Of a stretch of DNA of 64,000 nucleotides, positions 1,852 to 58,855 are shown one piece after another. Source of the stretch: a virus (taxonomy: Duplodnaviria > Caudoviricetes). Every line of letters starts with the position of its first letter. Positions within the stretch are counted from its first letter, which is position 1. The stretch covers positions 11,545 through 75,544 of IMG/VR virus record IMGVR_UViG_3300033067_001005; one strand, given 5' to 3'. The position numbers were made by a program, and so were the translations under genes. The notes under the pieces are model-generated. The model had not been told where the DNA came from. It was given only the letters and a program-made list of their open reading frames with translations, and did not search any database.

Positions 1852-2211
1852 ATGATCAAATGCAAGACCTCTAAAGACGGTGATTGGATCACCTTTAGCG
1901 TTAGCGGACACTCAGAAGACACGGGCGACGAAGAGCGCTTTCAAGTCTGTGCCGGAGTCTCTACGCTAGCTGTGGGCCTTCTAGCACTAACAACTAACGT
2001 CGGTAGCAGAGCCAAGCGACTACAGCACGCAGACGGCCACGTTCTAATCGACATCCCAGCATCCGATGAGGCAATGCTCTCGTCGTTGAAGTTCGTCAAG
2101 TACGCGCTAAGGGTGCTGTATTCTGGCTATAGCGAGCATCTAGAGCTTGATTTCGCAGACGACGTACCGGAGTACGCGCCTTGGCCGAGCCCAGATCCCA
2201 CGTTGGCGTAG
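1852..2211 (+). CDS. prp: Prp-family (YsxB/DUF464, ribosomal-processing type) cysteine protease
   Basis: FSVSGHS...QVCAGVSTL matches the Prp catalytic GH...VCAxVS signature; ~110 aa size and C-terminal L..L...Y.EH pattern fit the family. Confidence 0.8.
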   Translation: MIKCKTSKDGDWITFSVSGHSEDTGDEERFQVCAGVSTLAVGLLALTTNVGSRAKRLQHADGHVLIDIPASDEAMLSSLKFVKYALRVLYSGYSEHLELDFADDVPEYAPWPSPDPTLA

Positions 2212-3818
2212 CTGGTAGCTGCCCCCTAGATACGGAGAAGCTGACGGACCTAATCCTGGCGTTCGTCGTCCTCTTCAACGAGCCTATGGGGATCCACCTG
2301 TACAGGTATCAACGCCTGTTCATGCGTGAGATCATCCACAGCCTACTAGACCATAACGGTGCGACGCTGACAGGGCTTTGGAGCCGGCAGAGCGGGAAGA
2401 GCGAGGCTCTTTCTAGTCTCGCGCCGGCTCTTTGTGTTTTCCTACCTGCCTTGGCTAAAGCCTTCCCCGGCGACCCAAGACTAACGGACTACACAGAGGG
2501 CTTCTGGGTAGGCATCTTCGCTCCGCGATTGGACCAGAGCGGAATCATCTACGGTCGTATTAGAAGCAAGGCGGAGAAGCCTAGCTCTCTAGCGCTGTAC
2601 CAGGATAACGACATCGGGATTCAGCTCACGCAGAGCCGAGGAGACCAAGTCTCTTGGAGCAACGGGAGCTTCGTCGCGTCTCAAACTGCCAGCGAGCAGA
2701 GCAGCGTTGAGGGTAAGACCTATCACCTCGTGATTCTAGACGAGGCGCAGCTAATCAGCCGGACCAAGGTCAACAAAGAAATCGCCCCGATGTTGGCCGC
2801 TACCAACGGCCTAATGGTGAAGATTGGCACTGCCAGCTTCTATAAGGGCGGCTTTCACGACTCCATCGTCTACAACCTGTCCTACGAGAAGAAGACAGGT
2901 AGGCGCTACCACTTCGAGTTCCCGTACGACGTCGTAATAGAAGAGAAGCGACGCACGTACGAAGAGACGAAGAAGCCCTTCCACCTGAACTACGAAGCCT
3001 GGGTCTCTACTGAGCTAGCTAAGCTCGGCGGGAACAAAGACAACGAAGAGTTCAGGATGAACTTCCGCCTGATGTGGTTCGAGGCCAACACGGGCGCGAT
3101 CGACCGCGATGCCTTCTATGACGCGGCAATTGAGACTCTAGAGGCGAATCAACCCACCTTTAGAGGAGACCTCGTTGCTGGTCTGGACTACGGAAAGAAG
3201 CACGACGCAACCATCCTGACGATCATGTCGGTCAATCCGAAGGAAATCGTCGACACTAGGGCTATGATTCGTCCTGGCGACGACATCCCTGTCTACCACG
3301 AGAAGACCATCATCGCTTGGTTTGAGCTAGAGGGAAGGCGCTGGAAAGAGATCCAGGGCAAGGTCGTTGCCGCTCTCTCCGAATACGCCGTTCACACACT
3401 AGTAGCTGACTCAACTGGCGTGGGAGACCCACTAACAGAGCAGCTACAAGACCTGATTCCCAGCATTAGAGTCATTCCGTTCGTTCTGTCAGCGCAGGGC
3501 AATGACCTGATGTACAAGCTCTATATCCAAGAGATGGAAGCGGGGCGTCTAAAGTACGCTGCCGGACCAGACACAGCTGCAACGAAGGTCTATAAGAACT
3601 TCGTACACGAACATGAGCAGTTGCAAAAACTGCGGAACAACCTCTATATCAAGTGCTGTGCCCCGGAAGGGGAACACGACGACTACCCAGACTCGGCCGC
3701 ACTTTGCTGCTATGCTGCAACGGTCCCTAGGGAATCGTTCATCGAACAGACTCAAAGCCCGTTCAAGTCGCGTCGTAGCAATGCTGCTGGGCGCTCTCGG
3801 TCAGATAGATACAGATAG
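2181..3818 (+). CDS. terL: terminase large subunit
   Basis: Walker A SRQSGKS, Walker B VILDEAQ, nuclease motifs AGLDYGKKHD, DSTGVG and HDDYPDS; TTG start uncertain. Confidence 0.93.
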   Translation: MAEPRSHVGVAGSCPLDTEKLTDLILAFVVLFNEPMGIHLYRYQRLFMREIIHSLLDHNGATLTGLWSRQSGKSEALSSLAPALCVFLPALAKAFPGDPRLTDYTEGFWVGIFAPRLDQSGIIYGRIRSKAEKPSSLALYQDNDIGIQLTQSRGDQVSWSNGSFVASQTASEQSSVEGKTYHLVILDEAQLISRTKVNKEIAPMLAATNGLMVKIGTASFYKGGFHDSIVYNLSYEKKTGRRYHFEFPYDVVIEEKRRTYEETKKPFHLNYEAWVSTELAKLGGNKDNEEFRMNFRLMWFEANTGAIDRDAFYDAAIETLEANQPTFRGDLVAGLDYGKKHDATILTIMSVNPKEIVDTRAMIRPGDDIPVYHEKTIIAWFELEGRRWKEIQGKVVAALSEYAVHTLVADSTGVGDPLTEQLQDLIPSIRVIPFVLSAQGNDLMYKLYIQEMEAGRLKYAAGPDTAATKVYKNFVHEHEQLQKLRNNLYIKCCAPEGEHDDYPDSAALCCYAATVPRESFIEQTQSPFKSRRSNAAGRSRSDRYR

Positions 3819-5412: not shown

Positions 5413-5906
5413 TGACATCAGAGCTGCAATCAGCCCTGTCCTCAATAGGAGCCACCGTCGGCCTAATCACCTTCGTTCTGTTCGTTCTAGAGAAGTCTAA
5501 GAACAGCGGAAAGCAGGAGACCAAGCAAGAGAACTCGGTAGAAAAGGCCTCACTAGAGCGACAGATGGCTGACAACCTTCTGGAATCCAAGTTCCAAGCT
5601 TTAGGGCACGACCTGAAACTGGCTATTGCCACTTCGGATGTTCGTTCTGATGAGCGAGGAAAGAGGCTGCAAGAACAGGTAGTGGACATGCACAAGTCCA
5701 TCGCCGCTTTGACTGCGGACATGTCCAACCAGGCAAAGGCGCAGATCATTACGGATGAAAAGCTGTCTACGGTCACGAAGAAGCAGGACGAGACCGAAGC
5801 CCAGCTGGACAAGCTGTCTAATGAAGTGCAATCGCTCGGAAAGCAAATGTCCAAGATAGAGAACAGACTGTCTGGGCATTACTCGAAAACAGATCCCAGC
5901 AAGTAA
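5412..5906 (+). CDS. N-terminally membrane-anchored coiled-coil protein
   Basis: single TM (IGATVGLITFVLFVL) followed by heptad-like coiled coil. Confidence 0.6.
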   Translation: MTSELQSALSSIGATVGLITFVLFVLEKSKNSGKQETKQENSVEKASLERQMADNLLESKFQALGHDLKLAIATSDVRSDERGKRLQEQVVDMHKSIAALTADMSNQAKAQIITDEKLSTVTKKQDETEAQLDKLSNEVQSLGKQMSKIENRLSGHYSKTDPSK

Positions 5907-5916
5907 GGGGTAACTA

Positions 5917-7524
5917 ATGGCCGGCTCATCGATGCAGTTCTTGGCACTACAGGGCGGAAGCGGGACAGCAATCCCGTTTGCCAGAGAGACGGAGCCCAGT
6001 GCTATTGCCACCGTAGCTATGAGCCCCAAGGACTCGCAGCGTCTTCGGCGGTACGAGGAACACTGGCGCTTCTACCAGGGGCGACACTGGAACTTTGACC
6101 GTGAGGATGGCGAGCCTCTAGTTACCTCTAACTACTGTCGCGCAATCGTTCACAAGAAAGCTGCCTGGCTTGTAGGGAAGGGCATGGTGCTCGACACCCC
6201 GCAGGCCTTGCAGCACGTGACGAAGCCAAAGCTCGTAGAGACGTGGAAGTACAATAACGAGCAGATTCTCCTGTGGAAGCTAGCCGTAACTGGCGGCGTC
6301 ACTGGAGACTGCGTTGTACTGGTCACCGTGAAGGAACCGACGGGCGTAGAGCGCCGCTTCAACCCGAACACGGGCGGGCGCATCCACTTGCGGCTTGTAA
6401 TGCCACACCAGTACTTCCCGCGCTACAACCCCCTCAATAACGAAGAGCTAATCGGCGTCCGCATCATTACTGAGGTGGATGCTCCCGCTCCCGTAGAGAG
6501 GGTGGGGATGCGTGGCACTGGCAGGACCGTCGTCCCTCGTAAGCGCCGCTACGTGGAAGACATCACGGCGGAGAAGATTGTAGAGGGGTACGAAGATGGG
6601 CAGATGACCGAGAAGCCGAACGTACTGGGAGAGATCCCCGTCGTTCACTGGGTCAACCTACCGTTCCCCGGCGAAGTCTTCGGACAATCGGACCTAGACG
6701 GCGCAATCGACCTACAGCGTGAGCTGAACGAGAAGTTGACCGACCTCTCGGACATCATCAACTATCACGCGGCGCCAATCACCATCGTGACGGGTGCAAA
6801 GGCTAAGGCACTAGAGAAGGACGCCCGCAACATGTGGACGGGCCTTCCTGCTGACGCCAAGGTGTACAACCTCGAGCTGGGAAGCTCCGGGGACACTAAC
6901 TACAGGTACGTCGAGCTTGTGCGCAAGATGCTGCTAGAGCTTGCCAGCGTTCCTGAGGTAGCCCTGGGTGGCATCATCGCCATCTCCAATACGGCAGCCG
7001 CGGCACTAGAGGTGCAATTCCAGCCTCTGACGGAAGCCATCGACCAGAAGCGGCCGAACTATGAGCAGGGCCTAGAGCGCGTGAACTATCTGATTCTGCG
7101 CTGGTGGCAGACCATGGAGAAGTTCAACCTCCCCGTCGACCTCTGTAAGGAATGCGGCGGAAGGATTCTGACCTTCCAGGTCAAGACCAAGGATGGCAAG
7201 CAGCGCACGATGCGCAAATGCTACCTAATCGACCCGCAGACTCTAGAGTTCATGGAGCCTGACGATGTCCGCGTTAACGTAAAGCGCGAATACTCGTTCG
7301 GCACCGAGACTCGGATGATGCCCTACGGCCAGGTAAAGAAGGAGTTCTTGCAGCGCTCCGCCTCCTACTGGGACCCCATGCCCAGAATCGATAAGGTCGA
7401 AGAGGAGCAAAGCAAGCTAGACATGGCGGAGCAGAAGAAGGAAGAAGCCGCTAAAGAGCAAATTGCGGCAGCTGGTTATGACCCTGAGCAGCTGGCGGCT
7501 GCGGAGAAGCCAGGAGAAGAATAA
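5917..7524 (+). CDS. portal protein, SPP1 gp6-like, N-terminal part plus a C-terminal extension
   Basis: RFYQGRH, NYCRAIV, G.IPVVH..N, GQSDL..IDLQ..N, P.VALG..SN.AAL motifs; the usual crown segment is missing and is found in 8535..9179. Confidence 0.88.
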   Translation: MAGSSMQFLALQGGSGTAIPFARETEPSAIATVAMSPKDSQRLRRYEEHWRFYQGRHWNFDREDGEPLVTSNYCRAIVHKKAAWLVGKGMVLDTPQALQHVTKPKLVETWKYNNEQILLWKLAVTGGVTGDCVVLVTVKEPTGVERRFNPNTGGRIHLRLVMPHQYFPRYNPLNNEELIGVRIITEVDAPAPVERVGMRGTGRTVVPRKRRYVEDITAEKIVEGYEDGQMTEKPNVLGEIPVVHWVNLPFPGEVFGQSDLDGAIDLQRELNEKLTDLSDIINYHAAPITIVTGAKAKALEKDARNMWTGLPADAKVYNLELGSSGDTNYRYVELVRKMLLELASVPEVALGGIIAISNTAAAALEVQFQPLTEAIDQKRPNYEQGLERVNYLILRWWQTMEKFNLPVDLCKECGGRILTFQVKTKDGKQRTMRKCYLIDPQTLEFMEPDDVRVNVKREYSFGTETRMMPYGQVKKEFLQRSASYWDPMPRIDKVEEEQSKLDMAEQKKEEAAKEQIAAAGYDPEQLAAAEKPGEE

Positions 7525-7922
7525 TGGGAATCTTCGCTAGTATCGCAGCCAAGCTAGGCCTAGGCGGCTCAGGAAACGCTGCTACACCAAAGGGCGTTAC
7601 TGTCGGCGCTAGAGGCGGGAAGTACTACCTAGATGCTAACGGCAAAAAGGTGTACGGAGACCCTACCAAGGTGAAAGCCAAGGCCGCCGCGGCGCAGAAA
7701 GAGGCCCTACCAAGCAAACAGAAGGACAAGGCCGACGCGCACACGACCAAGGCTTTCGCTGCCTCTAGTAAGGCAAAGGACGCCGCTTCGCACAAGGCAG
7801 CTGCTGACGCGCACAAGATCGCAGCGGAGCATCACAGCAAGATAAACACTAAGTACTCCAAGATGAAGGCCAAGCACCACAGAGAGATGGTGGCCGAGCA
7901 CAGCAAGAAAGCGAAGGGCTAG
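7524..7922 (+). CDS. basic Lys/Ala/His-rich protein with G.RGG.YY...GKKVYG motif
   Basis: GARGGKYYLDANGKKVYG; helical H..AA.AH repeats; coupled to portal by TAATG. Confidence 0.7.
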   Translation: MGIFASIAAKLGLGGSGNAATPKGVTVGARGGKYYLDANGKKVYGDPTKVKAKAAAAQKEALPSKQKDKADAHTTKAFAASSKAKDAASHKAAADAHKIAAEHHSKINTKYSKMKAKHHREMVAEHSKKAKG

Positions 7923-7926
7923 AACC

Positions 7927-8535
7927 ATGGGCGTGTACGGAAAGCTCGCAGAAAAGTTAGGCGTCAGTGGTGGAGGCTCTAAAGGAACCCAGACTGGGCC
8001 CCGAGGCGGAAGATACTATCTGGATGCCAGCGGGAAGAAGGTTTATGGAGAGCCACCCAAAGGCTCTTCTGGTTCTAAGGCCAAGAACAAGGCAGCTGAC
8101 GACCCCGTAGCCATGGCTAAGAAGTTTAGTAGTCAGGCTCATTCCGCTTCCTCCGCTGCATACGATCCTAATTCCCACCATATGGCAGGAAAGGCACATC
8201 TTCTAGCTGCACACCTACAAGGCAAAGCGGGTGACAAGGCAGCTCAGGCCAAGCACCTAGATGCAGCCGAGGCACATGGCGACAAGTCTGCTGCTAATCT
8301 TCCAGCTGGCTACGTAAGCCAAATCAAAGCTGAAGCAGTAATGGCTAAAGCTGAATTGACCGGCAAGAAGATGAAGGGCTCCGGTGACATCATCACTAAG
8401 GGAGCCATGTCTGGGCATCTTTACCACGGAGAGTTGGAAGGAAAGCATGTCTACTCTCGCTCTCTGGAGGGGGGACGTGGCATGGGCCATACAGCTGACT
8501 CCGCCTACAAGTTTTCCGATAAGAAGGTCCACTAA
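7927..8535 (+). CDS. paralog of 7524..7922, basic protein with GPRGGRYY motif
   Basis: GPRGGRYYLDASGKKVYG; similar N-terminus and His/Ala-rich helices. Confidence 0.7.
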   Translation: MGVYGKLAEKLGVSGGGSKGTQTGPRGGRYYLDASGKKVYGEPPKGSSGSKAKNKAADDPVAMAKKFSSQAHSASSAAYDPNSHHMAGKAHLLAAHLQGKAGDKAAQAKHLDAAEAHGDKSAANLPAGYVSQIKAEAVMAKAELTGKKMKGSGDIITKGAMSGHLYHGELEGKHVYSRSLEGGRGMGHTADSAYKFSDKKVH

Positions 8536-9179
8536 TGGCACTCTTTCTAATTCCAAGCGTCTCAAAGCTCCTCGGGGCAAAGGACAAGCCCAAGGGCGAG
8601 ACACCCGAGCCTGAGACCGGGGAAGCTAATGCAAAGCCCGGTCAGCTCGTTGCCCACGACATCGACATCCCGGAGGAGCCGGAAGAGGTCAACGCCGTCG
8701 TTCAGGAATGGGACAACGAGAAGAACCAGTTCGTCGAGCGCAACCTAGGCAAGCGTCTTCTCGTGCCAACAGGCTGCGAAAGGCCCACGTACTTTTCCCC
8801 GTTCGAGAACTCGGTTACGCTGAAGAGCGCCCTACCGCGTGACAAGGAAAAGGACACTAACCTGTACCAAGCCTGGCAGACTAATGGCTGGGTAAGCAGA
8901 CACTGGGTCATGAGCCGTCTAGAAGAGGGCATCTCTATCTCGCAGATGGACAAGGAAATCGCGGACGATATCCCGTTCATTCTCTCTATTCAGGGAAAGC
9001 CTGACCCCTCTGGCCAGGTTGCCCAGACAAACGGACTTCAACAGCCCGGTGACGGGCCTGGCGACAACAACGGAGCGCCGCTACCCCCCGGACCAGGCCC
9101 TGGCCGCGGGAACAAGTTCGCTCCTGGCGATGGCCTAGCAAAGGCCCCACCCAACGCTTCACCGGGAAGGAAGATGTGA
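8535..9179 (+). CDS. portal protein C-terminal (wing/crown) part encoded as a separate ORF
   Basis: ENSVTLKSALPRD...QTNGWVSRHWVMSRL...EIADD matches the SPP1-type portal C-terminal V.F..LP.D...G.iS pattern, followed by a Pro/Gly tail. Confidence 0.7.
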   Translation: MALFLIPSVSKLLGAKDKPKGETPEPETGEANAKPGQLVAHDIDIPEEPEEVNAVVQEWDNEKNQFVERNLGKRLLVPTGCERPTYFSPFENSVTLKSALPRDKEKDTNLYQAWQTNGWVSRHWVMSRLEEGISISQMDKEIADDIPFILSIQGKPDPSGQVAQTNGLQQPGDGPGDNNGAPLPPGPGPGRGNKFAPGDGLAKAPPNASPGRKM

Positions 9180-9180
9180 G

Positions 9181-10194
9181 ATGAAACTGACACTGCTAAA
9201 GAAGACCGGAGTCGTCGATGACCCCGATCCGCGTACCACGCCGCCCACTAGAATCTTCCCTGTCTCTCCACAGTATGACGACGCCAAGCTGACGCCGGCC
9301 AAGTCCATTCACTGCATCTTCGTCGTTCTGAACGGGACGGCAGACGCGGCGAGCGGACTAGTAACGGCGCAGCTGTTCGTGAAGGGCGAGATTGCCCAAG
9401 GCGTTCTCTCCCCCGCTGGCGGAGCTACTTCGGAGACTAGATGGGTGCCTGTTGGCTCTCCCAAGACTGTCTCCAATAACGAGCTAGTCACCTTCCGTCT
9501 GCCTCCGGCGGCGGACAAAGACGACTGCTTCATGAGGCTAACCAGCATCTCTGGTACGTCTGCAACCGACGTTGCGATGTACTGGGCGCCTGGCGGGGAG
9601 ATGGAAGCGGACCTCGGCCTGGGTAGTGCCACTGGCGCTATTGCCACGCTGAACTCTGCTATCCAGGCTCTAATGCTAGCACAGTACAACGCTACCAGAC
9701 CTGTCCTAGCTGACAGAATTGCCAGCATTGCACAAGCAAACCAGCGTGGCGACATCACCGTAATGGAGCAGTATCTTCCCTCAGCGGAAGACTCTGCTAA
9801 CGGTGGTTTCCACACGTTCGAGCGAGCAATCGCAGATGTACTGGGAGCCTGGACCGGATATCACTCTGGCACCACCAAGGTGGGCACGGCAGGAATCAAC
9901 GTCAAAGCCGCTGTAGGAAGAGTCAGGCAGCTTAGAGGCGTAAACACCTCTACTACTGTCGATTACTACTTGGTACTCGTTGACAAGGCGACTGCGCCTA
10001 TCAACGGAGATGCTGTGGTAGACGCTATTGCTCTTCCCAGATCAGCCGCTGGCGTTGCCGTGAACGAGAAGCATAGAGACTATCCTGGTGGTAAGAAGAT
10101 GACCGCAGGCTTCTCTTACGCCATCTCTACTACGCCGCACACAGTCACCTTGGCTGCCGCTTTGGATTGTTCTGTTGGCGCCGAATACGCCTGA
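9181..10194 (+). CDS. putative head-associated structural protein (two beta-rich domains)
   Basis: position in head module; similarity to 13471..14214. Confidence 0.55.
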   Translation: MKLTLLKKTGVVDDPDPRTTPPTRIFPVSPQYDDAKLTPAKSIHCIFVVLNGTADAASGLVTAQLFVKGEIAQGVLSPAGGATSETRWVPVGSPKTVSNNELVTFRLPPAADKDDCFMRLTSISGTSATDVAMYWAPGGEMEADLGLGSATGAIATLNSAIQALMLAQYNATRPVLADRIASIAQANQRGDITVMEQYLPSAEDSANGGFHTFERAIADVLGAWTGYHSGTTKVGTAGINVKAAVGRVRQLRGVNTSTTVDYYLVLVDKATAPINGDAVVDAIALPRSAAGVAVNEKHRDYPGGKKMTAGFSYAISTTPHTVTLAAALDCSVGAEYA

Positions 10195-10205
10195 TAGGAG
10201 CTGAA

Positions 10206-10571
10206 ATGCGCTACGAAGTCCTTGTAAAGAAGTGGGATGAGAAGAAGGCTTTCACCCCTGTAATCGAGGTCAGCGACCCCACAGGCGAATGGAAGTCCGG
10301 GCGGATCGAAGGCCTGCGCTTGGAGCAACCAGACTCGCTAGACGAGCTGAAGATCCACCAGTGGTTGGCTGACTATGCCATGAAACACCAAGCTATCGCG
10401 GCGGCGGCACTAGCGGCCAAGGACCCTAAGCCCAAGGTGAAGCGTGGCCTAATCGACGCTACCAAGACTGACAAGGCTCGCAAGGTTGCTGAGGGCAAGA
10501 CAGGCTCAATCGCTGACGACGCAGACGACGCAGACCCGTTCACGGCTAACATGCTAGCACTAGGAAAGTAG
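10206..10571 (+). CDS. hypothetical protein
   Basis: SD AGGAG before ATG 10206. Confidence 0.55.
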   Translation: MRYEVLVKKWDEKKAFTPVIEVSDPTGEWKSGRIEGLRLEQPDSLDELKIHQWLADYAMKHQAIAAAALAAKDPKPKVKRGLIDATKTDKARKVAEGKTGSIADDADDADPFTANMLALGK

Positions 10572-10579
10572 GAGTCACT

Positions 10580-13474
10580 ATGCCCGCCCAGAACCTGATT
10601 CCTAACTCCGAAAACGTGTCGGCGTGGGGAATTCTGACGAATGTTGCTGCTGCACTAGCCTTGGCTGTCGCTGGTCCGGATGGCGCACTGGGCGGAGTGT
10701 CTCTTGTTACAGCCAATGGGGGCGGCGGAGCACTAAACCACTTCGCTGAGATGGCTAATGCGCAGATGCCCTACTTTGCGCAAGGTCTAGGATCGGCAGC
10801 TTTCCAGCTGAACGCAGGCAGAGAGCGTGTCTCTGGAGCGTGGATCAAGGCTGGGACGACCACTAAGGTCGTTGTGGGCAACGGGCGACACACGAACTGG
10901 TATCGTGCGCTATTCAACCTGTCTAACGGCACCGTGGACACGGAAGAGAACTGCCGCGCGTACATCGAGCCGGGAGAAAACGGCTGGTACTACTGTTGCG
11001 TCGTCTATATCGTGCAACCCCTAGAGGCCAACGTTCAGCAGGACTCCGTAGTAGTTGCTCCTGTGCCAGCGGCACAGACGGGAACAGCCAGCATCGCCTA
11101 CAATCACGCTAGCGAGTCCTGCTACGCCTTTGGAGCAACGCTAGCTCTGACCAACGGTCCTCCTCCGTACCAGAAGACCACGACGCAGACCAATGAGGCT
11201 CGTGCTCCTAGAGCACGTAACACTAGACAGAACAACATCCGTTGGTCTGAGAACCCGAGTAATGCTGTCTGGACGAAGTATGCTGCCTCTTGTGCAGCTT
11301 CAGCTGTGAACTCCCCACTAGGGGGCCTGGCGGAAGCAATCATTGAGGACGGCACTCTAGGATTCCACGGTGTGTCTCAGGGCGGAACTGCGGACAAAGG
11401 CATCTATACGATTACTGCGCTAGTAAAGGCAGGGACTCGTTCTTGGTGCCTTCTAGCTACAGCTGGGACAGGTGTAGGCGCTTACTTTGACCTGACTCTA
11501 GGTGTAACTGGCTCCATCTTCGGCTCACCGCTAGCAGCTTCGATAGAGCCGGCAGGAGACGGGTGGTGGTGGATCAGCGTAACCCACGCTATCCCAGCAG
11601 CTATTAGAGCTTTGGAGCTTTATGCAGCTACGGGTAATGCGGCGGCCAACTACACAGGCACTAACGGAAACACAGCACTCTACGTAGCGGGAATGTCTCT
11701 TGCGCAAAGCTGGGGTCCGCCTGACCACGTGAAGACCACCGTTGCCGTGATCAATCCAAAGATTGGTGTTAGAGGCAGAGCCAGGCAGAACTTGACTCCT
11801 GCCAGCGAGGACTTCACGGCCGGCTTTGCCTGGTTCAAAGAGAGCGGAGCTATTACTGTCACTGCTGACGTGGTAGCTGGACCTGATGGAGCCCTGACGA
11901 AGGCCGATCGTATCCAGTGGACATCAGGAATCCTGCGATACGTTGGCCAGAACATCAACTTCACTAGAGGTCCTTACACAGTCTCTGTGTGGCTGCGTTC
12001 AGCAACAGGTGGAACTCAGTTGGTAAGGCTGCGGCTTCCCCTCATTCCTGGCACCTCTAACCAGGACAGTCCTGTGTTGACCTTGACGCCAGACTGGCAG
12101 CGCTTCTCTTTCTCTGTGGAGATACAGTCGTCCAACGTCACTCTGTCCACTGTGCTCATAGAGAGCGACGCTGGGCTAAGTGCCGCAGACTTCTACGCTT
12201 GGGGCTTCCAGCTCACCCAAACGGCGAGAGAAACGCAGTACGTGAAGTCGACCACGCAGGCGGTGCTCGGTCGCGCTCCGCGCTCGCTCATGGGCAAGCA
12301 GAACCTCCTGCTTTCGTCGCAGGGGATGCACAGCGACGCGGTCAACTGGTTCCCAACGCTTGTTACTCGGTCTGCGTCCCCAGCGCTGGCACCCGATGGA
12401 ACGGCCACAGTCTCGCGCATCGAGGACACGGACCCAGCAAACTACGGCTACATCCGCCAGCAGATCAGCATCCCGCCGGGCGTGCGCAGCTATTGCTTTA
12501 GCATCTACCTGCGCAAGACGGCGACGTCTGCGGTCTGCGGATGGAACTACCTGGCGGTAGGGGGAACCACCCAGCCCGGAAGCATGCGTGTCGCGCCAGC
12601 CACGGGCGCCTGGTCGTCTGGCGGCACTCCTGGTGGCGTGGAGGATTGCGGCGACTACTGGCGCGTCTGGAACGTGGTCCGAAACCAGGGGTCTAGTGCG
12701 CTGCGCGTCGACTTTTATGTGGCGACGGGGACGAGCTTCAACGGCGGCGACAACGCCGCGGGCGTCGGCTGGGTCGACGTGTGGGGAGCGCAGTGGACGG
12801 AGGGCGAGGGTCCCACCGAGTACGTCGCAACGACGACCGCGGTCGTGAACACCGGAGCTCCGCGCCGTCGCGCTCCACGCCAGAACGTCGGCGCGAACAG
12901 CGACATGCTGAGCGGAGCGTGGAGCATTGCGAATGCGACCCGCTCCGCTGGGCCGGCAGGACCAACAGGAAAGACTGGCATTCTAGTACTGGAAGATGGC
13001 AGCGCAGCAGCAGTCCACTATATCACGCAGACTGTAACCTCGCTTGGTACAGGTCGCCTTGCTACTCTAACGTTCTATGCGAAGCGTGCTACGGCAGGAT
13101 CTCGTCAGTGGATTGCTTGCGCTGGAAACGGCGGAAACTCTGCACTATGGTTCGACCTGATAAACTTCAAACGAGGCACAGGCGGCGGAGGCTGTGTAGC
13201 TTCAACGATAGAGCAGGTAGAAGGCGGCTACGCAAAGATCAGCATTTCGTGGATCCAAACAGCCGGACTAGAGGGAGTACGTATCTACATGGCTGACGCT
13301 GACGGCAGCGTTACCTTCAATGGAGACAGCGGAGCCTCTGGAGGCATCTACGTCTTTGAGGCACAAGTAACTGAGGGCTACGGACCTCCGCCTGAGCAAG
13401 TGAGTACCAGGAATACTCCTGTGGGCTCTCAAGCGCAGGAATACGACAGAGGGCCAAGAGGCCTCTACGCATGA
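10580..13474 (+). CDS. head spike/fibre protein with five tandem carbohydrate-binding-like domains
   Basis: five ~190-aa units each starting QNL...S(E/Q/D)...W and ending around (W/F)G.Q...G..P..Y..T. Confidence 0.7.
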   Translation: MPAQNLIPNSENVSAWGILTNVAAALALAVAGPDGALGGVSLVTANGGGGALNHFAEMANAQMPYFAQGLGSAAFQLNAGRERVSGAWIKAGTTTKVVVGNGRHTNWYRALFNLSNGTVDTEENCRAYIEPGENGWYYCCVVYIVQPLEANVQQDSVVVAPVPAAQTGTASIAYNHASESCYAFGATLALTNGPPPYQKTTTQTNEARAPRARNTRQNNIRWSENPSNAVWTKYAASCAASAVNSPLGGLAEAIIEDGTLGFHGVSQGGTADKGIYTITALVKAGTRSWCLLATAGTGVGAYFDLTLGVTGSIFGSPLAASIEPAGDGWWWISVTHAIPAAIRALELYAATGNAAANYTGTNGNTALYVAGMSLAQSWGPPDHVKTTVAVINPKIGVRGRARQNLTPASEDFTAGFAWFKESGAITVTADVVAGPDGALTKADRIQWTSGILRYVGQNINFTRGPYTVSVWLRSATGGTQLVRLRLPLIPGTSNQDSPVLTLTPDWQRFSFSVEIQSSNVTLSTVLIESDAGLSAADFYAWGFQLTQTARETQYVKSTTQAVLGRAPRSLMGKQNLLLSSQGMHSDAVNWFPTLVTRSASPALAPDGTATVSRIEDTDPANYGYIRQQISIPPGVRSYCFSIYLRKTATSAVCGWNYLAVGGTTQPGSMRVAPATGAWSSGGTPGGVEDCGDYWRVWNVVRNQGSSALRVDFYVATGTSFNGGDNAAGVGWVDVWGAQWTEGEGPTEYVATTTAVVNTGAPRRRAPRQNVGANSDMLSGAWSIANATRSAGPAGPTGKTGILVLEDGSAAAVHYITQTVTSLGTGRLATLTFYAKRATAGSRQWIACAGNGGNSALWFDLINFKRGTGGGGCVASTIEQVEGGYAKISISWIQTAGLEGVRIYMADADGSVTFNGDSGASGGIYVFEAQVTEGYGPPPEQVSTRNTPVGSQAQEYDRGPRGLYA

Positions 13475-14214: not shown

Positions 14215-14226
14215 GACAAGAACCAG

Positions 14227-14255
14227 TTGCAACGCTACTCGTCGAAGGGTAGGAT
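14227..14255 (+). promoter_or_regulatory. sigma70-like promoter upstream of the capsid genes
   Basis: TTGCAA (14227-32), 17-nt spacer, TAGGAT (14250-55) in an intergenic gap. Confidence 0.55.
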
Positions 14256-14308
14256 CGGGACGATCCTTGGCAATCAAGCTAAGGACTCCCTAGCTAGGAG
14301 AAGACACG

Positions 14309-14582: not shown

Positions 14583-15692
14583 ATGAGAAACCTTCGTAAG
14601 AAGTTCCTGGGGACGTTCGATGAAAAGGCGGCTCCTGCCGCTGGTGAGCAAGGGGCGCCTGGGGGACAACCTCCGGCGCCTTCTGCGCCTGTAGACATTC
14701 AAGCCATCGCTAGTGCGGCAGCTGCGGCAGCTTCGGCTCAGACCGTAGAGAGGCTTCGCAAGTCGGCTGAAGATGAGGCCGCGGAAGAGGCTAGAGCGGC
14801 AGAGGAAGCTCGGCTCGCGGAAGAGGCCAGCCAGTCTCTAGAGGCTCACCGTCGCCACACCGATAGACAGGTAGAGGCGATTCGTGCGGAGCTTATGGCT
14901 ACACAGGCTGCTCTAAAGGCCTCGCAGCTTCAGACCTATAAGACGGAGCGGATCTCTCAGGTGAGAGCGGCCGGCGTAGGTATCGTCGTAGAACTCGTCA
15001 CTGGGAACAGTGAGGCGGAGATCGAGCAGTCGATTCAGCACGCTGCTAATGTGTACGCCACCTACCAGAAGCAGATCATGGCCGCGCAGACTCCGGCAGT
15101 ACCTGCCGCCGCGGCTGCTCCGGGGATTCCCCAAGCAGTAGTGCCCCCTCCCCCGGCAGCTGCCCCGCCTGCACCGGGGACGCTCACTCCCAGCGCTCCC
15201 ACGGCGGAGAACGCCCAAGTGTTTGACGCCGAGACCCTTGCCTACCTAACCTCCCCCGAGGCGGCAAGAAACGGCGATTACCAGAAGTACCGCCCTCTAA
15301 TTCATGCCCAGCTTCAGAGCAAGTTCTCTGGAGGCACTCCTACCTCTAATGTTCGTTCTACTTTGCAGCACCCCCAGGTACTGGCTCAGCGAGGAGCACC
15401 CGGCACGCCGGCCCCTCCGATGCCTGTTCAGAGAGGGGATATGCCAGGCGGCGTGAGAGTACCTATCGTTCAGGTAGGCCCGCCCCCGATGAACGCGCAG
15501 CCGCAACCAGGGACTAATCCCCGCTTCGGTGCGCCTCCCGCAGCTCAGGGCGCCCCACAGCCCGCAGAGCTGGATGCAGCATACAATCGGGGTCTAGTAC
15601 CAACGCTGGACCTGGAAGCCATTCGAGCCCGAGCACAAGCGGCTGCTGACAAGTACCGCCCTGCTCCTGCTCAACCCGTAGTGACTAACTGA
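14583..15692 (+). CDS. capsid scaffolding protein
   Basis: Ala/Glu/Pro-rich coiled coil directly upstream of the major capsid gene; N-terminal RKKFLGTFD. Confidence 0.8.
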   Translation: MRNLRKKFLGTFDEKAAPAAGEQGAPGGQPPAPSAPVDIQAIASAAAAAASAQTVERLRKSAEDEAAEEARAAEEARLAEEASQSLEAHRRHTDRQVEAIRAELMATQAALKASQLQTYKTERISQVRAAGVGIVVELVTGNSEAEIEQSIQHAANVYATYQKQIMAAQTPAVPAAAAAPGIPQAVVPPPPAAAPPAPGTLTPSAPTAENAQVFDAETLAYLTSPEAARNGDYQKYRPLIHAQLQSKFSGGTPTSNVRSTLQHPQVLAQRGAPGTPAPPMPVQRGDMPGGVRVPIVQVGPPPMNAQPQPGTNPRFGAPPAAQGAPQPAELDAAYNRGLVPTLDLEAIRARAQAAADKYRPAPAQPVVTN

Positions 15693-15708: not shown

Positions 15709-16686
15709 ATGTCGTCGATGACTTCGGCCGTAAACAGCGGCCCCGGATTCTCGCAGCTGGTTGCTGCTGTTCGTGATGTGTACTCACAGGAGATCTACTT
15801 CTCCGCGATGCCGAACCTGCGCTTCGACCAGTTCGCCACTAGAAAGGACGAACTCACTGGCCAGCCTGGTGCGACTATCGTCCTTCCCAAGATGGGGACG
15901 ATCAAGCGTGGTGGCACCCTCACTGAGGGCGTCCGCATCCAGGGTAAGTCGATGAGCATGTCGACCACCACGATCACCGTGGCTGAGAAGGGTAACGCCA
16001 TCCTCATGACCGAGCGTCTTCTACAGACCTCGTTCTATGACAACATGGCTGCCGCCTCGATGCTCCTAGGGCGAGACTTCGCTCTAGTGAATGACACGGA
16101 CCTTCGTGACATCGCGCTCACCGCGACTAACAAGGTCTACGCCGGCAAGAAGGCCGCTCGTACGGACCTCGTTGGTGGTGACACCGCCGATACGACGTTC
16201 CTCATGGACATCGGGGAGAAGCTGGAGATCAACTCCTCGCCGAAATGGGGTAATGACTTCTACGTCAGCTTCTTCCACCCGCATGGACTAGCGAAGCTCC
16301 GTCAGAGCGTCGGCTGGGTCAACGCGGCGCACTACCAGGGCGCTACCCCGCTCTTCTACGGTGAGGCTGGCCGCTGGAACGACATCCGGTTCGTCAGCAC
16401 CTCTATGATGCCGAACGGCTTCAACAGCGCTCTGAACGACGCTGGCGAGTTCGCGGACCCCGGCTACGTCGCTGCTCTAGCGAATGGCACGGCCGGCAAC
16501 CAGACCACCATCTACCAGTGCGTCACCTTCGGCGAATACAGCTACGGCCAGGGCAACGCTCTGAACGTCGAGCTTCGCGACAACGGTGTCCAGGACTACG
16601 GCCGTGAGCACGGCCTCGCCTGGTACGCCATCTGGGGCCAGGGCCTCCTAGAGAACAACAACCTCGTCGTCGGCGAGCACGCCTAA
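15709..16686 (+). CDS. major capsid protein (N4-gp56-like, HK97 fold)
   Basis: RFDQFA...QPGATI...LTEG, E.GNA...T, G..G.WNDIRFV and YGR.HGLAWY motifs; highly biased codon usage. Confidence 0.9.
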   Translation: MSSMTSAVNSGPGFSQLVAAVRDVYSQEIYFSAMPNLRFDQFATRKDELTGQPGATIVLPKMGTIKRGGTLTEGVRIQGKSMSMSTTTITVAEKGNAILMTERLLQTSFYDNMAAASMLLGRDFALVNDTDLRDIALTATNKVYAGKKAARTDLVGGDTADTTFLMDIGEKLEINSSPKWGNDFYVSFFHPHGLAKLRQSVGWVNAAHYQGATPLFYGEAGRWNDIRFVSTSMMPNGFNSALNDAGEFADPGYVAALANGTAGNQTTIYQCVTFGEYSYGQGNALNVELRDNGVQDYGREHGLAWYAIWGQGLLENNNLVVGEHA

Positions 16687-20105: not shown

Positions 20106-20330
20106 ATGCCTACCATTAGAAGCAACTACAGCCGTTACGTAGAAGTCCATCTGGAGACTGAGTGCGTCACTCTCAATCCAGGTGACTCCCATTCGTTTAC
20201 GGGGCCTGTGACGCCCCACCTACAGGAGCTAATTGCTTCTAATATGGTTACGCTGGTTCAAGATGAGCCCGAAGCGGAGCCTGTTCCCATCACCAAGCCC
20301 GGCGTTCACGCTGAAGAGGAGAGTGTCTAA
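20106..20330 (+). CDS. small tail-module hypothetical protein
   Basis: SD GAGG; coupled to sheath. Confidence 0.55.
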   Translation: MPTIRSNYSRYVEVHLETECVTLNPGDSHSFTGPVTPHLQELIASNMVTLVQDEPEAEPVPITKPGVHAEEESV

Positions 20331-22081
20331 TGGCTACTGAGAACTTCGACGCACCTGGCGTAAGCGCCAGAGTCGGAAGAGCTGCCGTCCCCGTAATCCA
20401 GGCCTCGCCTGTGAGCATCGGCGGGTTCATCATGTACGCAACGAAGGGTCCGCACGACAAGGCCGTCCGCGTCGACAGCTTCGCCAAGTTCGTCCGCATC
20501 TTCGGCTCCTATGACACGAACACGTACGGGCCTGATGCGGTCCGCGCGTTCTTCGACAACGGGGGCAGAGCCTGCTGGATCGTCCGCATCACTAGAAGCG
20601 GCGGCTCCGGTTCCAACGTGAAGGCCACCTTCACCCTTCAGAGCGCAGCGCTTGCTAACACGATGGTCTGCACGGCTGTCGGCTACGGCGTGTCCGGCAA
20701 CGGCATGAAGGTAGTGGCGGCGAAGGAAGACACCAAACTGGGACTAATCGGAGCTGTAACGGCTACTGGTGCGCAGACCGTCATCAACTGCTCGTCTGCC
20801 ATTGCTGCCAAGCTACGCGTGGGTGACCAGATCGCCATCACGGAAGGCACTACGCAGCGCGGCATCGTCTCGCGCATCGACGACACCAAGATCATCCTAG
20901 TAGCGTCTGTGACTGTCCCCGCGGGCGGCTACAATACGACTACGACGATCATCACTAAGGAAACCTTCTCCATTACGGTGTATGACCAGGGCGTTGTCGT
21001 CGCTGGTCCTTATCGTAACCTGGCGATGTCCAGCCTAAGCCTGAAGGACTACTTCCTAACGCGGCTGAACACGACGGATGACGAGAACCCGGTAACGTTC
21101 ACTGACTCTGGCCTCTCCATGGCTGGCGGCGTGGATACTCGCCCCGTCAATACCGTTTCCGGCGGCGACATGCTCGTAGGTGGCTCTGAGATGACCCAAT
21201 CGGCTGATGCCGATTACAAGGGCTCTTCGGCTACGTCTACCGGCGTCTATGCCTTCGACAAGGTTGCCTCTGGGCAGGTCAACATCCTCGCCATTCCGGG
21301 CGTAACTGGCACCAGCGGCGCCGTCTCCAAGGCTCTAGTGGAATACTGTGCTGGCAGAGAAGACGTTCACTGCGTCATCTCTCCTGCACTGGCTACTGCG
21401 GTATCCGCGGCTGTCACGTACAAGCAGGACAATATCGGAGCCTACCGCTTCGGCGCGATGTACTACCCCTGGGTGCAGATCCTGGACCCGATCAGCGGGC
21501 AGCCTGCTTACGTGCCGCCGGACGGCTACGTCATGGGTCTGTACGCTCGTACGGATAGAAAGCGCGGCGTACAGAAGGCTCCTGCTGGCGAGGCAGAGGC
21601 TCTAGTAGGTACCATCGGTGTGGAGAGAAAGCTCTCTAGAGATGACCGTGGCACCCTCTACACGGTCAACATCAACCCCATCGAAGACATTGCCGGCAAG
21701 GGGCAATGCGTCATGGGAAGCCGCACTCTGGAGAAGGGCCTGTACGGACAGGTCTCCGTCTCTAGAACGTATACCTACCTGGCTGTGACGCTTCGTGAAG
21801 GCACCCGCTGGGTCATCTTCGAGCCGAACAACGAGGACACCCGCGCTCGCTTGCGCCGGTCCGTCTCCGACTACCTAGAGCGCGAATGGAGAAAGAACCT
21901 TCTAAACGGTGATACCGTTGACCAGGCGTTCTACTGCATCTGCGATGCCAGCAACAACCCCGATGTCATCGTCAAGGCCCAGCAGATGGTTGCCGATGTC
22001 GGTGTGAACGTGCCGGACGTCACCGAGAACCTAGTAATCAACATCAGCCAGGACCAGCGCGGTTCTAGCGCTGCGGCCTAA
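20330..22081 (+). CDS. tail sheath protein
   Basis: APGVS, F...FG, AFFDNGG..CWIVR, YYPW, PP.G...G.YAR.D..RGV.KAPA, WVIFEPN motifs. Confidence 0.95.
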   Translation: MATENFDAPGVSARVGRAAVPVIQASPVSIGGFIMYATKGPHDKAVRVDSFAKFVRIFGSYDTNTYGPDAVRAFFDNGGRACWIVRITRSGGSGSNVKATFTLQSAALANTMVCTAVGYGVSGNGMKVVAAKEDTKLGLIGAVTATGAQTVINCSSAIAAKLRVGDQIAITEGTTQRGIVSRIDDTKIILVASVTVPAGGYNTTTTIITKETFSITVYDQGVVVAGPYRNLAMSSLSLKDYFLTRLNTTDDENPVTFTDSGLSMAGGVDTRPVNTVSGGDMLVGGSEMTQSADADYKGSSATSTGVYAFDKVASGQVNILAIPGVTGTSGAVSKALVEYCAGREDVHCVISPALATAVSAAVTYKQDNIGAYRFGAMYYPWVQILDPISGQPAYVPPDGYVMGLYARTDRKRGVQKAPAGEAEALVGTIGVERKLSRDDRGTLYTVNINPIEDIAGKGQCVMGSRTLEKGLYGQVSVSRTYTYLAVTLREGTRWVIFEPNNEDTRARLRRSVSDYLEREWRKNLLNGDTVDQAFYCICDASNNPDVIVKAQQMVADVGVNVPDVTENLVINISQDQRGSSAAA

Positions 22082-30798: not shown

Positions 30799-31221
30799 AT
30801 GCTAGCTAATGACCTACTGGCGCGCTCCCTGTTGGGAAAGGGCCTGAAAGCTCCACTAGAAGTAGACAGCTCTACGCAAGACTTCGCGGGCGTAGAAGAA
30901 GAGGCCAACACGTATCAGTGCATCTTGGACCTTCTCCAAACTCGCACAGGCGAGCGTGTGATGAACGAAGACATCGGGACGATCATCCCGGCCTTGGTCT
31001 TTGAAGACTCGGATACCGCGATAGCTCTTCTTCCAGCTGCTGCCAAAGAGGCTCTAGAGAAGTACGAGCCTAGAATCGACAGAGTACAAACCAGCGCTAG
31101 GGCTCTGAAGGATGGGAACGGCGCAGCTGTCGTCTATCTAGACCTCCGCTTTCGTTACAAGAGCACTGGTAGGATAGACAACAAGACCATTCCGTACTCG
31201 ATCAATGAAGGAGACTTGTAA
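30799..31221 (+). CDS. baseplate wedge gp25/gpW-like protein
   Basis: I..LL.T..GERVM....G, EPRI motifs. Confidence 0.88.
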   Translation: MLANDLLARSLLGKGLKAPLEVDSSTQDFAGVEEEANTYQCILDLLQTRTGERVMNEDIGTIIPALVFEDSDTAIALLPAAAKEALEKYEPRIDRVQTSARALKDGNGAAVVYLDLRFRYKSTGRIDNKTIPYSINEGDL

Positions 31222-33221
31222 TGGCCAGCGGTAACGACCTCTCCATCCGGCGCGTTAGCCCGGTAGTTGACTACACGAGCATGGACTTCGACGCGCTGAA
31301 GGCAGACCTAATCGCCTACGCTCAAGCGAAGTATCCTGACCGCTGGACCGACTTCAATGACACCCAATGGGCCGTCGTCTTTCTAGAGATGCAGTGCTAT
31401 ATCGGGGACCTGCTTACCTATAACCTGAACTCTATGCTACGTGAAGCCTTCACTGGTGCTGCTGTGCGCAAGGCTAACGTGGAAGCCTTCGCTCGTACCA
31501 TCGGCATGGAGCTGACCTACCCAGTCTCTTCCACCACAACCCTGCGCGTGAGCTTGAACCCGCTTGGCGCCTATCCGTTCACCTTGACCAAGGTGGACAA
31601 CAAGTTCTCTAATGGAAGCACGGAAGACGAGGTCATCTTCCAGCCCATCTCTGACACCGTCGTCGCTGCCTACCCGGGCGTCGGCTACGTTGACGTGTCC
31701 GCCATCGAAGGTGAGCGTTTCGACGCATACCTTGTTGGCGTAGGCACTGGCGCTGCCAATCAGAAGTGGCAATTCCCTCAGGACTCCATCGTTTTCGACT
31801 CCGTCTCCATCACTGTAGGCGGCGTGGGATGGACTAGAGTTCTGAACCTCGTTATGCAGGCGAGCACTGCACAGGTTTACCGTCTAATCAGAGATGACGA
31901 GGGCTTCCTCTTCATTCTCTTTGGAGACGGCATTCATGGCGCCAAGCCTGGTAGCGGCGTAGAGATCAGAGGCACCTTCCGCCAGGGAGGCGGCAAGCGT
32001 GGAAACCTGAATAAGACGGCCATCACTACAGTTGTCTCGGCGCACAGCAACGTTACTGGCGTGACCAACAGCCAGGTGGAAGCTACCGGCGGCGATAATG
32101 AGCAGACGCTGGCTTCAGCTAAGCAAGCCATCCCAGGGTTTCTGTCCACCAATGACAGAGCCGTGTCACTACCCGACTACGAAGCCATGGCCAACAAGGT
32201 CAGCGGCGTAAAGAAAAGCAGAGCTAGCCTGGATGTCATTCCTGGCTCTAACGTCGTTCGTCTCATCGTGGCTCCTACAGGTGGAGGCTCTCCTAGCTCC
32301 ACGCTGAAGAAGAACGTGTCTTCTGCCTTTATTGGAAAGAAGGGGCACGCAGCTAGAGTAAAGGTGTTCGGGCCCACCTATAAGGACCTTCGCTTGCAGC
32401 TGCTGGCACACATCAATCCGGCGGTAAGAGCAACTGATGGCGAACTGACGCTGAAGAACGGGCTGCTGAACAGCGCAGGCACTGGTCTACTAGACTTCGA
32501 CAACCTTGATTTCGAGGCCGTTGTCTCTACTGGAGAAGCTGAAGAGTACTTGCTAGCGCAGACTCGCTTTCAGAACTACTTCGCTACTCTAAAGACGAAG
32601 GGTATCGACCGCGTAGAGATCGAGCGCATGGACATCGATCCAGTCGCGCGAATCAGAGATGAGGGAAACACGGGCGATGGCACTGTAGGCTCCATTATTC
32701 TGAATGACCTACAGCGGAGAAGAGAGTACTACATACTTCTAGTGTCATCTGCTCAATACCACGTGTATGAGCGCATCGTCGGTCGCGTCAGCTACCTGAG
32801 CGACACTGAGCTAACAGACACTGGGAAGCAGTTCGACTCTGAAGGCGTCGTCAGCTTCGCGGGCTACAAGCTGGCTCCGTACAGAACGGCTTCTAGCTTG
32901 GTAGACGTAGCTAGCGCTAGCGATACAGACATCGTCCTGGCTACAGGCTCTCCCAGCTTGTTCGCCATGACGCAGCCCCAAGCTGAGTACTATACGTACT
33001 CTCCCACTCCGACCGTTGTTACTGTCGGAAGCCAGTACACGTCTCCAGATGGCAGCGTGAAATTCACTCTAGCGGCTGGGGCAACCCCCTTCCTAGCTGG
33101 TGACTCTCTCTACCTGGATGTGTACCCTAAGGAAAGTGACATTCGTCTGCGGCCGGATGAGTATCCGCGTCTAACCAGCGCGAACCTAACGATTCGTACT
33201 TCTGGCGGCCTCCGCCTGTAG
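31221..33221 (+). CDS. baseplate wedge J-like protein
   Basis: DY...DF..L...L, WTD...D, FGDG..G..P, GG...G, A.GG...E, RAV...DYE motifs. Confidence 0.88.
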   Translation: MASGNDLSIRRVSPVVDYTSMDFDALKADLIAYAQAKYPDRWTDFNDTQWAVVFLEMQCYIGDLLTYNLNSMLREAFTGAAVRKANVEAFARTIGMELTYPVSSTTTLRVSLNPLGAYPFTLTKVDNKFSNGSTEDEVIFQPISDTVVAAYPGVGYVDVSAIEGERFDAYLVGVGTGAANQKWQFPQDSIVFDSVSITVGGVGWTRVLNLVMQASTAQVYRLIRDDEGFLFILFGDGIHGAKPGSGVEIRGTFRQGGGKRGNLNKTAITTVVSAHSNVTGVTNSQVEATGGDNEQTLASAKQAIPGFLSTNDRAVSLPDYEAMANKVSGVKKSRASLDVIPGSNVVRLIVAPTGGGSPSSTLKKNVSSAFIGKKGHAARVKVFGPTYKDLRLQLLAHINPAVRATDGELTLKNGLLNSAGTGLLDFDNLDFEAVVSTGEAEEYLLAQTRFQNYFATLKTKGIDRVEIERMDIDPVARIRDEGNTGDGTVGSIILNDLQRRREYYILLVSSAQYHVYERIVGRVSYLSDTELTDTGKQFDSEGVVSFAGYKLAPYRTASSLVDVASASDTDIVLATGSPSLFAMTQPQAEYYTYSPTPTVVTVGSQYTSPDGSVKFTLAAGATPFLAGDSLYLDVYPKESDIRLRPDEYPRLTSANLTIRTSGGLRL

Positions 33222-58614: not shown

Positions 58615-58855
58615 GGGCGTTGTCGAGAACCTTCCTCCGTCAGTGCGCCTCGTTCTTCTGTCTAGCGCCGCTGGGATGGTAACAAAGGCTGACAATGCCG
58701 GCTTCGTCAGGCAGATGCCTGATGGTACTGTAACCCTCACATTCGCCATCATGCGTGATGGAGCACTGTTCGAGAAGGCTAAGAAGGACCGCAAGCTCAT
58801 TCAACGTGAGTTGCCCTTCTACGGCCCGTCAGCGGAGACCACTAATGGCGGGTAA
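58520..58855 (+). CDS. Lys-rich hypothetical protein
   Basis: basic N-terminus; overlaps both neighbours. Confidence 0.45.
   Translation: MPTKKPAKKTTTNSSKKQSKKPQKTSAKPRTKGVVENLPPSVRLVLLSSAAGMVTKADNAGFVRQMPDGTVTLTFAIMRDGALFEKAKKDRKLIQRELPFYGPSAETTNGG

Follow-up and report, generated by a model that had tools for sequence, protein, structure and literature searches.

We analyzed a 64,000-nucleotide (nt) stretch of DNA from an uncultured phage, hereafter the window, which is part of a 75.5-kb metagenome-derived virus record in IMG/VR (IMGVR_UViG_3300033067_001005, positions 11,545 to 75,544), and found that its portal protein is encoded as two separate genes with two other genes between them. 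Portal proteins are treated as invariant single-chain dodecamers, and their genes are hallmarks used for finding and classifying tailed phages. The window also encodes a tail sheath (20330..22081) and baseplate protein J (31221..33221), which identify the phage as contractile tailed. We consider it likely that the portal re-associates from two separately translated chains and that the junction between its genes serves as a slot for variable cargo genes. The split region comprises four consecutive open reading frames (ORFs) with near-zero spacing, all on the same strand, with overlapping stop and start codons at two of the junctions, just as an initial annotation of this DNA had described them (lengths in amino acids [aa]):

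5917..7524, plus strand: ORF1 (535 aa, frame 1), the N piece of the portal, comprising the clip, stem, wing, and first half of an insertion domain, with an acidic helical tail
7522..7526, plus strand: TAATG stop/start overlap of ORF1 and ORF2, with GGAG 6-9 nt upstream, read directly from the sequence
7524..7922, plus strand: ORF2 (132 aa), first inserted putative cargo gene, with an N-terminal G-A-R-G-G-K-Y-Y motif at 7605-7628
7927..8535, plus strand: ORF3 (202 aa), second inserted putative cargo gene, with an N-terminal G-P-R-G-G-R-Y-Y motif at 7996-8019
8533..8537, plus strand: TAATG stop/start overlap of ORF3 and ORF4, read directly from the sequence
8535..9179, plus strand: ORF4 (214 aa, frame 3), the C piece of the portal, matching the C-terminal ~190 aa of fused portals

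ORF1 matched the Pfam family SPP1_portal (PF05133) over residues 38-402 (69.1 bits against a cut-off of 25.5; E = 4.5e-19) and the PHROG family phrog_64 over positions 82-432 of 547 (E = 1.2e-29). The Pfam match covered just positions 7-350 of the 416 in the profile, and beyond residue ~402 ORF1 continues into a CKEC...KC segment and an acidic tail, in agreement with the claim that the SPP1-type pattern breaks off within this gene. ORF4 had no match in Pfam, PHROG, or NCBIfam, and the NCBIfam scan was negative for all four ORFs. The homologs found with ORF1 as the query fell into two length classes, ~530-570 aa and ~670-760 aa. Both pieces of the window align end to end, with 51-55% identity, to the fused single-chain portals of relatives, which are 740-753 aa long: ORF1 to residues 3-539 of the fused protein P0006 (55% identity), and ORF4 residues 30-214 to residues ~560-751 of P0006 (51% identity; E = 3e-47) and to the fused protein P0010 (54% identity; E = 3e-54). 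ORF4 is also 61% identical to a stand-alone C piece from the related locus L001. When close homologs were checked for fused forms, as the initial annotation had proposed, 51 of the 79 carried both parts and 26 carried the N part only.

A profile of nine stand-alone C pieces was also compared, using hhalign, with the C-terminal block of insertion-free ordinary portals. The resulting match (probability, 92.9%; E = 3.6e-7) is far beyond chance and falls on ORF4 residues 83-152; in it, the LPRD that is invariant among the C pieces lines up with PLPKD in ordinary portals. Together with the fused-portal alignments, it bears out the proposal that the missing C-terminal block lies in 8535..9179, in another frame, so that the window does not have the whole portal fold on one polypeptide. 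The collinearity of ORF1 and ORF4 with P0006 and P0010 confirms that the portal is encoded in two genes. No report of split portals was found in the literature, our coverage of which was incomplete.

The split portal is present in at least 12 independent assemblies, including the window, with 0, 1, 2, or 3 genes between the pieces. The split loci other than the window are L001, L005, L006, L009, and L083-L089, and the sources of the loci were NCBI, JGI, ENA, Logan, and IMG/VR. There is no insert in L009 and L086, one large insert in L001, L006, L087, and L085 (the last with an extra small gene), two in the window and L083, three in L084, and at least three, up to the contig end, in L088 and L089; the portal is fused in L004, L007, L008, and L030. 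Among the relatives, the DNA between the pieces ranges from 0 to ~3.1 kb and is made of intact genes. The metagenomic origin of the record might point to an assembly artefact or a chimeric contig, but at least 11 further assemblies, drawn from four sources, have the same architecture with inserts that differ, and GC content across the split region is even (0.53-0.59), which makes this explanation extremely improbable. A BLASTN search of positions 5917-9179 against 50,697 phage records gave no match. No flanking repeats suggestive of a transposon were found around the region, and no promoter-like or terminator-like sites within it rose above the shuffled background.

Another possibility is that the C piece is a decaying remnant and that the N piece alone is the working portal, considering that ORF1 holds most of the portal fold by its coverage of the SPP1_portal profile. 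However, the C core is conserved as strongly as the N part. Identity in the N part and the C core is 55.5% and 56.8%, respectively, for pairs of split forms and 59.6% and 58.1% for pairs of fused forms. The nine split C pieces share 46 invariant columns, including LPRD, C81, and a GPGPGRGN tail, and the C piece is an intact ORF in every split locus that extends that far. Conservation at this level is not that of a decaying remnant, and we judge this explanation very unlikely. When 1.84 billion representative proteins were searched exhaustively with a profile, 57 matched, ~20 of them stand-alone C pieces of 170-300 aa. Searching viral contigs with ORF4 alone recovered no related loci; the portal alignment A1 did recover loci.

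All split forms belong to one subclade (37 members; 100% support), which also contains 11 fused forms, and its sister clade (n = 39) is entirely fused. A careful tree restricted to locus-verified split rows required 6 changes between the split and fused states, 4 of them forced by strongly supported branches, and none of the 200 bootstrap trees was explained by a single change. When a single split clade was enforced, the approximately unbiased test gave a log-likelihood difference of 53.2 (p = 0.064). A single origin of the split is thus disfavored, yet not formally rejected, and recombination could have blurred the distribution of the two states on the tree.

The position of the break was located on an AlphaFold2 model of the fused protein P0006, made from a 48-sequence alignment; the fold tests apply to P0006 rather than to the two chains of the window. 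The model had a mean predicted local distance difference test score (pLDDT) of 78 and a predicted template modeling score (pTM) of 0.74, and it matched the solved portals of SaPI1, SPP1, Bxb1, and phiCD508 with VIA Z scores of 25-29 over residues 29..690. The values were Z = 28.9 for SaPI1 (8vd8_A; 398 residues aligned; root mean square deviation [rmsd], 6.9) and Z = 25.9 for SPP1 gp6 (7z4w_A; 396 residues aligned; rmsd, 4.4; model residues 29..684), and Foldseek matched the phiCD508 portal with an E of 1.8e-15. Since only ~400 of ~660 residues align with the solved portals, residues ~405-620 of P0006 are an insertion. This lineage-specific domain of ~230 aa follows the long wing helix (371-403) and precedes the last wing strand (625-628). 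Its predicted beta strands (410-476) lead into a long helix (500-533), after which come a low-confidence linker (534-575) and a beta hairpin (582-608). The break of the split forms falls in the low-confidence linker, in line with the earlier suggestion that it lies inside a large insertion. The crown helices (636-684) belong to the part encoded by ORF4, and residues 620-690 of the model align with the C-terminal crown of SPP1 gp6 and other portals. On the window, these parts correspond to the following features:

7108..7521, plus strand: first half of the predicted insertion domain (ORF1 residues ~398-535), matching beta strands 410-476 and helix 500-533 of the P0006 model
8646..8810, plus strand: second half of the predicted insertion domain (ORF4 residues ~38-92), matching beta hairpin 582-608 and C613 of the P0006 model
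8811..8990, plus strand: last wing strand and crown helices (ORF4 residues 93-152), supported by the hhalign match of 92.9% and by P0006 model residues 620-690
9030..9176, plus strand: conserved Gly/Pro-rich tail, predicted to be disordered (N-G-A-P-x-P-P-G-P-G-P-G-R-G-N; invariant in nine split C pieces)

The segment HDIDIPEEPE and the pair G80-C81 of ORF4 are likewise invariant in the nine split C pieces. When the insertion domain was folded alone (A6; pLDDT, 72.8), a Foldseek search of the PDB gave nothing convincing (best E = 0.85), and a wide VIA search gave a best Z of 4.9 that spanned the long helix only, so that the domain received no fold assignment, which does not by itself make its fold a new one. 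The region of P0006 corresponding to the Gly/Pro tail (residues 694-751) has a pLDDT of <50. This tail is found in L001, L006, L009, and L083-L087, as well as in close fused forms, and could be a docking peptide inside the capsid.

The initial annotation had also drawn attention to Cys residues on both pieces. They turned out to be exact members of a conserved set of four, with its CKEC, KC, and GC corresponding to C410/C413, C435, and C81, respectively:

7144-7146, 7153-7155, and 7219-7221, plus strand: C410, C413, and C435 of ORF1, invariant in 46 homologs
8775-8777, plus strand: C81 of ORF4, invariant in nine split C pieces

G414 and G415 of ORF1 are also invariant across the 46 homologs. 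Among 48 fused proteins, all four Cys are present in 45 and none in the other three (P0047, P0049, and P0068), which come from at least two lineages. Locus L027 has no Cys anywhere in the insertion domain, and L016, with a P0049-type sequence, has none at the four positions. The residues named earlier are therefore kept or lost as a set, and because all four are lost together in relatives, they appear to act together. A shared four-Cys site, probably binding a metal through three residues of the N piece and one of the C piece, is plausible and offers the simplest reading of the Cys pattern.

Could the two pieces be rejoined into one chain? The fused relatives show a single chain as the ancestral state, and in the relatives without inserts the pieces overlap by 1-4 nt in different frames (overlap GGGAGCCGAATAATG in L009; GTGA in L086), so that an intron, protein splicing, ribosomal bypass, or frameshifting can be imagined. 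However, a search of all Rfam families, introns included, over positions 5500-9700 gave no match at E <= 1, and there are no intein-sized blocks in ORF1 or ORF4, nor was intron RNA structure or any intein block found at the break. As ORF1 is collinear with P0006 to within 2 residues of its own end and the leader of ORF4 is just ~30 aa, there is no room for intein halves. The intervening DNA (0 to 3.1 kb) is occupied by intact, conserved genes, each with a start of its own, and the junctions are ordinary TAATG or GTGA coupling overlaps with Shine-Dalgarno-like sites, not slippery heptamers. In the window, the ORF1/ORF2 junction (7512-7526) reads GGAGAAGAATAATG and the ORF3/ORF4 junction (8530-8537) reads CACTAATG; upstream of the ORF4 ATG, the open frame continues for 4 codons only. 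The gene is probably not rejoined, and we give any such mechanism very little credence. The TAATG overlaps suggest instead coupled translation of separate chains, and from the conservation of both pieces and the gene layout we infer that the portal assembles from two polypeptides.

The break itself had been attributed to gene insertion. This part of the initial annotation was not supported, since L009 and L086 share the same split with no gene between the pieces; insertion is thus probably not the cause, and probably the gene was split first and the junction took up genes afterwards. We also considered whether the start of ORF4 derived from the start of a cargo gene, as their amphipathic N-termini are similar, but a DNA alignment of the three start regions was unconvincing. 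An 11-nt identity (TAATGGCACTC) between the ORF4 junction and the L009 junction was too short to carry weight.

The two inserted genes are paralogous over residues 1-49 (55% identity; E = 4e-16) and share the N-terminal motif G-P/A-R/K-G-G-K/R-Y/F-Y...G-x-K-V-Y-G-x-P-P, which we call the cargo motif; after it, the body of ORF2 is helical and rich in Lys, Ala, and His. The same motif opens nearly all genes between the portal pieces in relatives (the inserted genes of L001 and L083-L089). It also opens genes just downstream of the portal in the fused loci L008 (three genes, 490-714 aa) and L030 (one gene), as well as a single 649-aa gene directly downstream of the portal in the insert-free L086. 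The 13 cargo-motif genes that adjoin or lie inside portals have unrelated bodies and total lengths of 132-714 aa. The third insert of L084 (L084:10442-11755) combines the cargo motif with an ADP-ribosyltransferase (ART) domain (ART, 4e-7, above the cut-off; ADPrib_exo_Tox, 1e-5), and one L083 insert has a weak metallopeptidase-like match; a constant module followed by variable enzymatic C-termini, within the head/packaging module, is thus seen in the cargo family. Several cargo proteins (L001:7680-8552, L088:2971-4659, and L089:2613-3869) end in a shared E-W-F-A-E-T-H block, at the position of which the L083 cargo has weak Peptidase_M90 and lethal-factor-like matches. This block may be a zinc-peptidase-like effector domain.

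A profile (A5) of 13 phage cargo motifs, ORF2 among them, retrieved many proteins annotated with the PBCV_basic_adap family (PF08789), with E values down to 1.9e-17, many of which also carry an HNH, SNase, Endonuclease_NS, kinase, or ART domain. The PBCV-1 kinases A278L and A282L, which carry PF08789, were recovered among the DNA-associated virion proteins (PMC3281028). The cargo motif, by this analogy, most likely binds DNA. The cargo proteins would then probably be DNA bound, packaged in the head, and delivered with the genome, a reading modeled on known effectors whose genes adjoin portal and MuF genes or are fused to them (PMC5512222, PMC5576092). No HNH, GIY-YIG, or LAGLIDADG match was found in ORF2, ORF3, or ten inserted genes of relatives; the motif is fused to HNH in unrelated bacterial proteins only, and the HNH+PF08789 protein P0121 has a bacterial gene context. 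Likewise, no MuF domain was found in the ORFs of the window or the inserted genes of relatives, and an ESM Atlas look-up of ORF3 gave no usable match.

Some results weigh against the reading of a two-chain portal with a slot for cargo genes. ORF3 matched PF08789 only below the cut-off (15.1 bits against 20.4; E = 0.026), ORF2 did not match it in the Pfam scan, and the library scans recognized no effector or enzyme domain in either. In addition, 185,579 genomes yielded no insertion-type portal that would have pointed to a host.

Most split C pieces, though not that of the window, which has a leader of only ~30 aa, begin with a variable helical extension of 40-140 aa that is lacking in the fused forms and has no similarity to their linkers. 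These extensions, together with the precise clustering of cargo genes at the N/C junction, might suggest that the crown piece is a separately controlled late-assembly or cargo-docking subunit, which would do more than restore the ancestral chain and would join the ring of N pieces at a chosen step, e.g., after cargo loading, with its variable N-terminal module binding the cargo encoded next to it. In L089, the extension module is a free-standing gene of 66 aa that follows a cargo gene and resembles the start of the L001 C piece (40% identity; E = 3e-10). However, the C piece of the window has no such module, and the extensions are poorly conserved, with a clear likeness just between L084 and L087. 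We regard the docking subunit as quite unlikely. A ~60-aa helical module (F-x-L...A-E-x-E...G-S/T-L-T) occurs at L089:3869-4069, L085:9786-10025, and L001:8554-8730, either as a gene of its own behind a cargo gene or as the opening part of a portal C piece, and may be a chaperone, immunity, or docking module.

According to the reading that we favor, in which the portal re-associates from two chains, the ancestral portal of this lineage would have been one chain of ~700-750 aa, with ~230 aa inserted after the long wing helix and ahead of the last wing strand. This inserted domain would have comprised beta strands bearing a CxxCGG knuckle and the third Cys, followed by a long acidic helix, a disordered linker rich in Pro and Glu, a beta hairpin, and the fourth Cys, and in one subclade the gene would have been broken within the linker. 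The N piece (5917..7524) would now form the clip, the stem, the wing, and the first half of the insertion domain, and the C piece (8535..9179) would complete that domain and add the last wing strand, the crown helices, and the Gly/Pro tail. Made as separate polypeptides from one late operon by TAATG-coupled translation, the two would reassemble noncovalently into the portal ring, where strand complementation within the insertion domain, the four-Cys (probably zinc) site, and packing of the crown would probably keep them joined. The junction would have become a landing place for variable cargo genes, represented in the window by two paralogs, whose motif most likely binds DNA, such that the proteins would be packaged in the head and leave with the genome. 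The data establish the split, the homology of the pieces, their conservation, the Cys pattern, and the distribution of the family; from these we infer co-assembly, metal binding, and packaging of the cargo.

A more far-reaching version of this proposal, which we offer tentatively and think rather unlikely, would make the break a selected and reusable docking and expression slot. A separate crown would let swappable DNA-binding cargo genes sit in the portal operon at fixed translational ratios, and the crown piece, often with its extra N-terminal module, would position the cargo at the portal to exit first with the DNA. This version would also involve several switches between the split and fused states and an interchain four-Cys metal lock.

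The split portal is of practical as well as structural interest. A crown that is a separate polypeptide can be added in trans and would be a natural system in which to study its role in packaging and ejection. If the interchain four-Cys site is real, it would also offer a simple test of what keeps the parts of a split protein together. Automated annotation and portal-based phylogenies can miss or truncate split portals, ORF4 being a case in point as it lacks a match in the three libraries scanned. More generally, a junction inside an essential structural gene can act as a hotspot for swappable, probably injected, proteins.

Outside the split region, the packaging and head genes of the window are as follows:

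2181..3818: large terminase gene
14583..15692: scaffold-like gene
15709..16686: major capsid gene

Between the portal C piece and the scaffold gene lies a block of ~5 kb (9181-14300; genes of 337, 134, 964, and 247 aa) without a counterpart in L001 and L002, where the scaffold and capsid genes come within ~1-2 kb; none of its four genes begins with the cargo motif. Further downstream, a family-A DNA polymerase (55187-58348; 1053 aa) is matched in two stretches and has a LAGLIDADG_3 domain at residues 754-817, resembling an intein or endonuclease insertion, and a RecA/Rad51-like protein (58755-60167; 470 aa), with its RecA match also in two stretches, may hold an insertion as well. In L001, L002, L084, L085, and L087, QueC, QueF, and DUF5591 genes are located directly upstream of the packaging module, suggesting 7-deazaguanine modification of the phage DNA.

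The portal of the window belongs to the same sequence family and fold as the SPP1 gp6-type portals (PF05133; 7z4w/2jes; 80alpha/SaPI1, 8v8b/8vd8; phiCD508, 9gb3; Bxb1, 9d94), and like theirs its gene follows shortly after the large terminase gene and precedes the scaffold and major capsid genes. However, these solved portals are single chains, whereas that of the window is cut inside a ~230-aa four-Cys insertion domain, and its last wing strand and crown are on a second polypeptide.

The gene arrangement resembles the phage genes in pieces, i.e., nrdA/mobE of Aeh1, topoisomerase genes 39/60 with mobA of T4, and gene 43 of phage 25, in that an essential gene, intact in relatives, is divided into two ORFs that flank one or more foreign ORFs; in Edgell et al. 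(2010; PMC2988022), Aeh1 nrdA/mobE has an overlapping UAAUG stop/start in the same operon, comparable to the TAATG of the window. In the cases described there, a gene for an enzyme is interrupted by a homing endonuclease gene of the HNH or GIY-YIG type. The window shares with them the unsplit orthologs with collinear pieces, and its pieces are under constraint, but here a structural ring protein is split, no nuclease domain, homing endonucleases included, was found in the inserts, and insert-free split forms exist.

The inserted genes, on the other hand, recall the capsid-packaged effectors encoded beside portal and MuF genes or fused to them, such as polyvalent proteins (Iyer et al. 2017; PMC5512222), MuF toxins (Jamet et al. 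2017; PMC5576092), and T4 Alt. They have in common a constant N-terminal module followed by variable C-terminal domains, ART among them, and a place within the head/packaging module next to the portal, and the ART-bearing insert of L084 recalls T4 Alt in particular. Unlike MuF effectors, the cargo family has no MuF domain, its constant module being PBCV-basic-adaptor-like and ~25 aa long, and the cargo genes of the split lineages lie inside the portal gene, whereas MuF and polyvalent genes lie after it or are fused to it. The PF08789 proteins of PBCV-1 and the phage cargo motif share a G-x-R-G-G-x-Y-Y...G-K-K-x-Y core; the phage motif differs in being N-terminal and single copy, and DNA binding is putative for both. 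The system has its place among both the split phage genes and portal-linked cargo.

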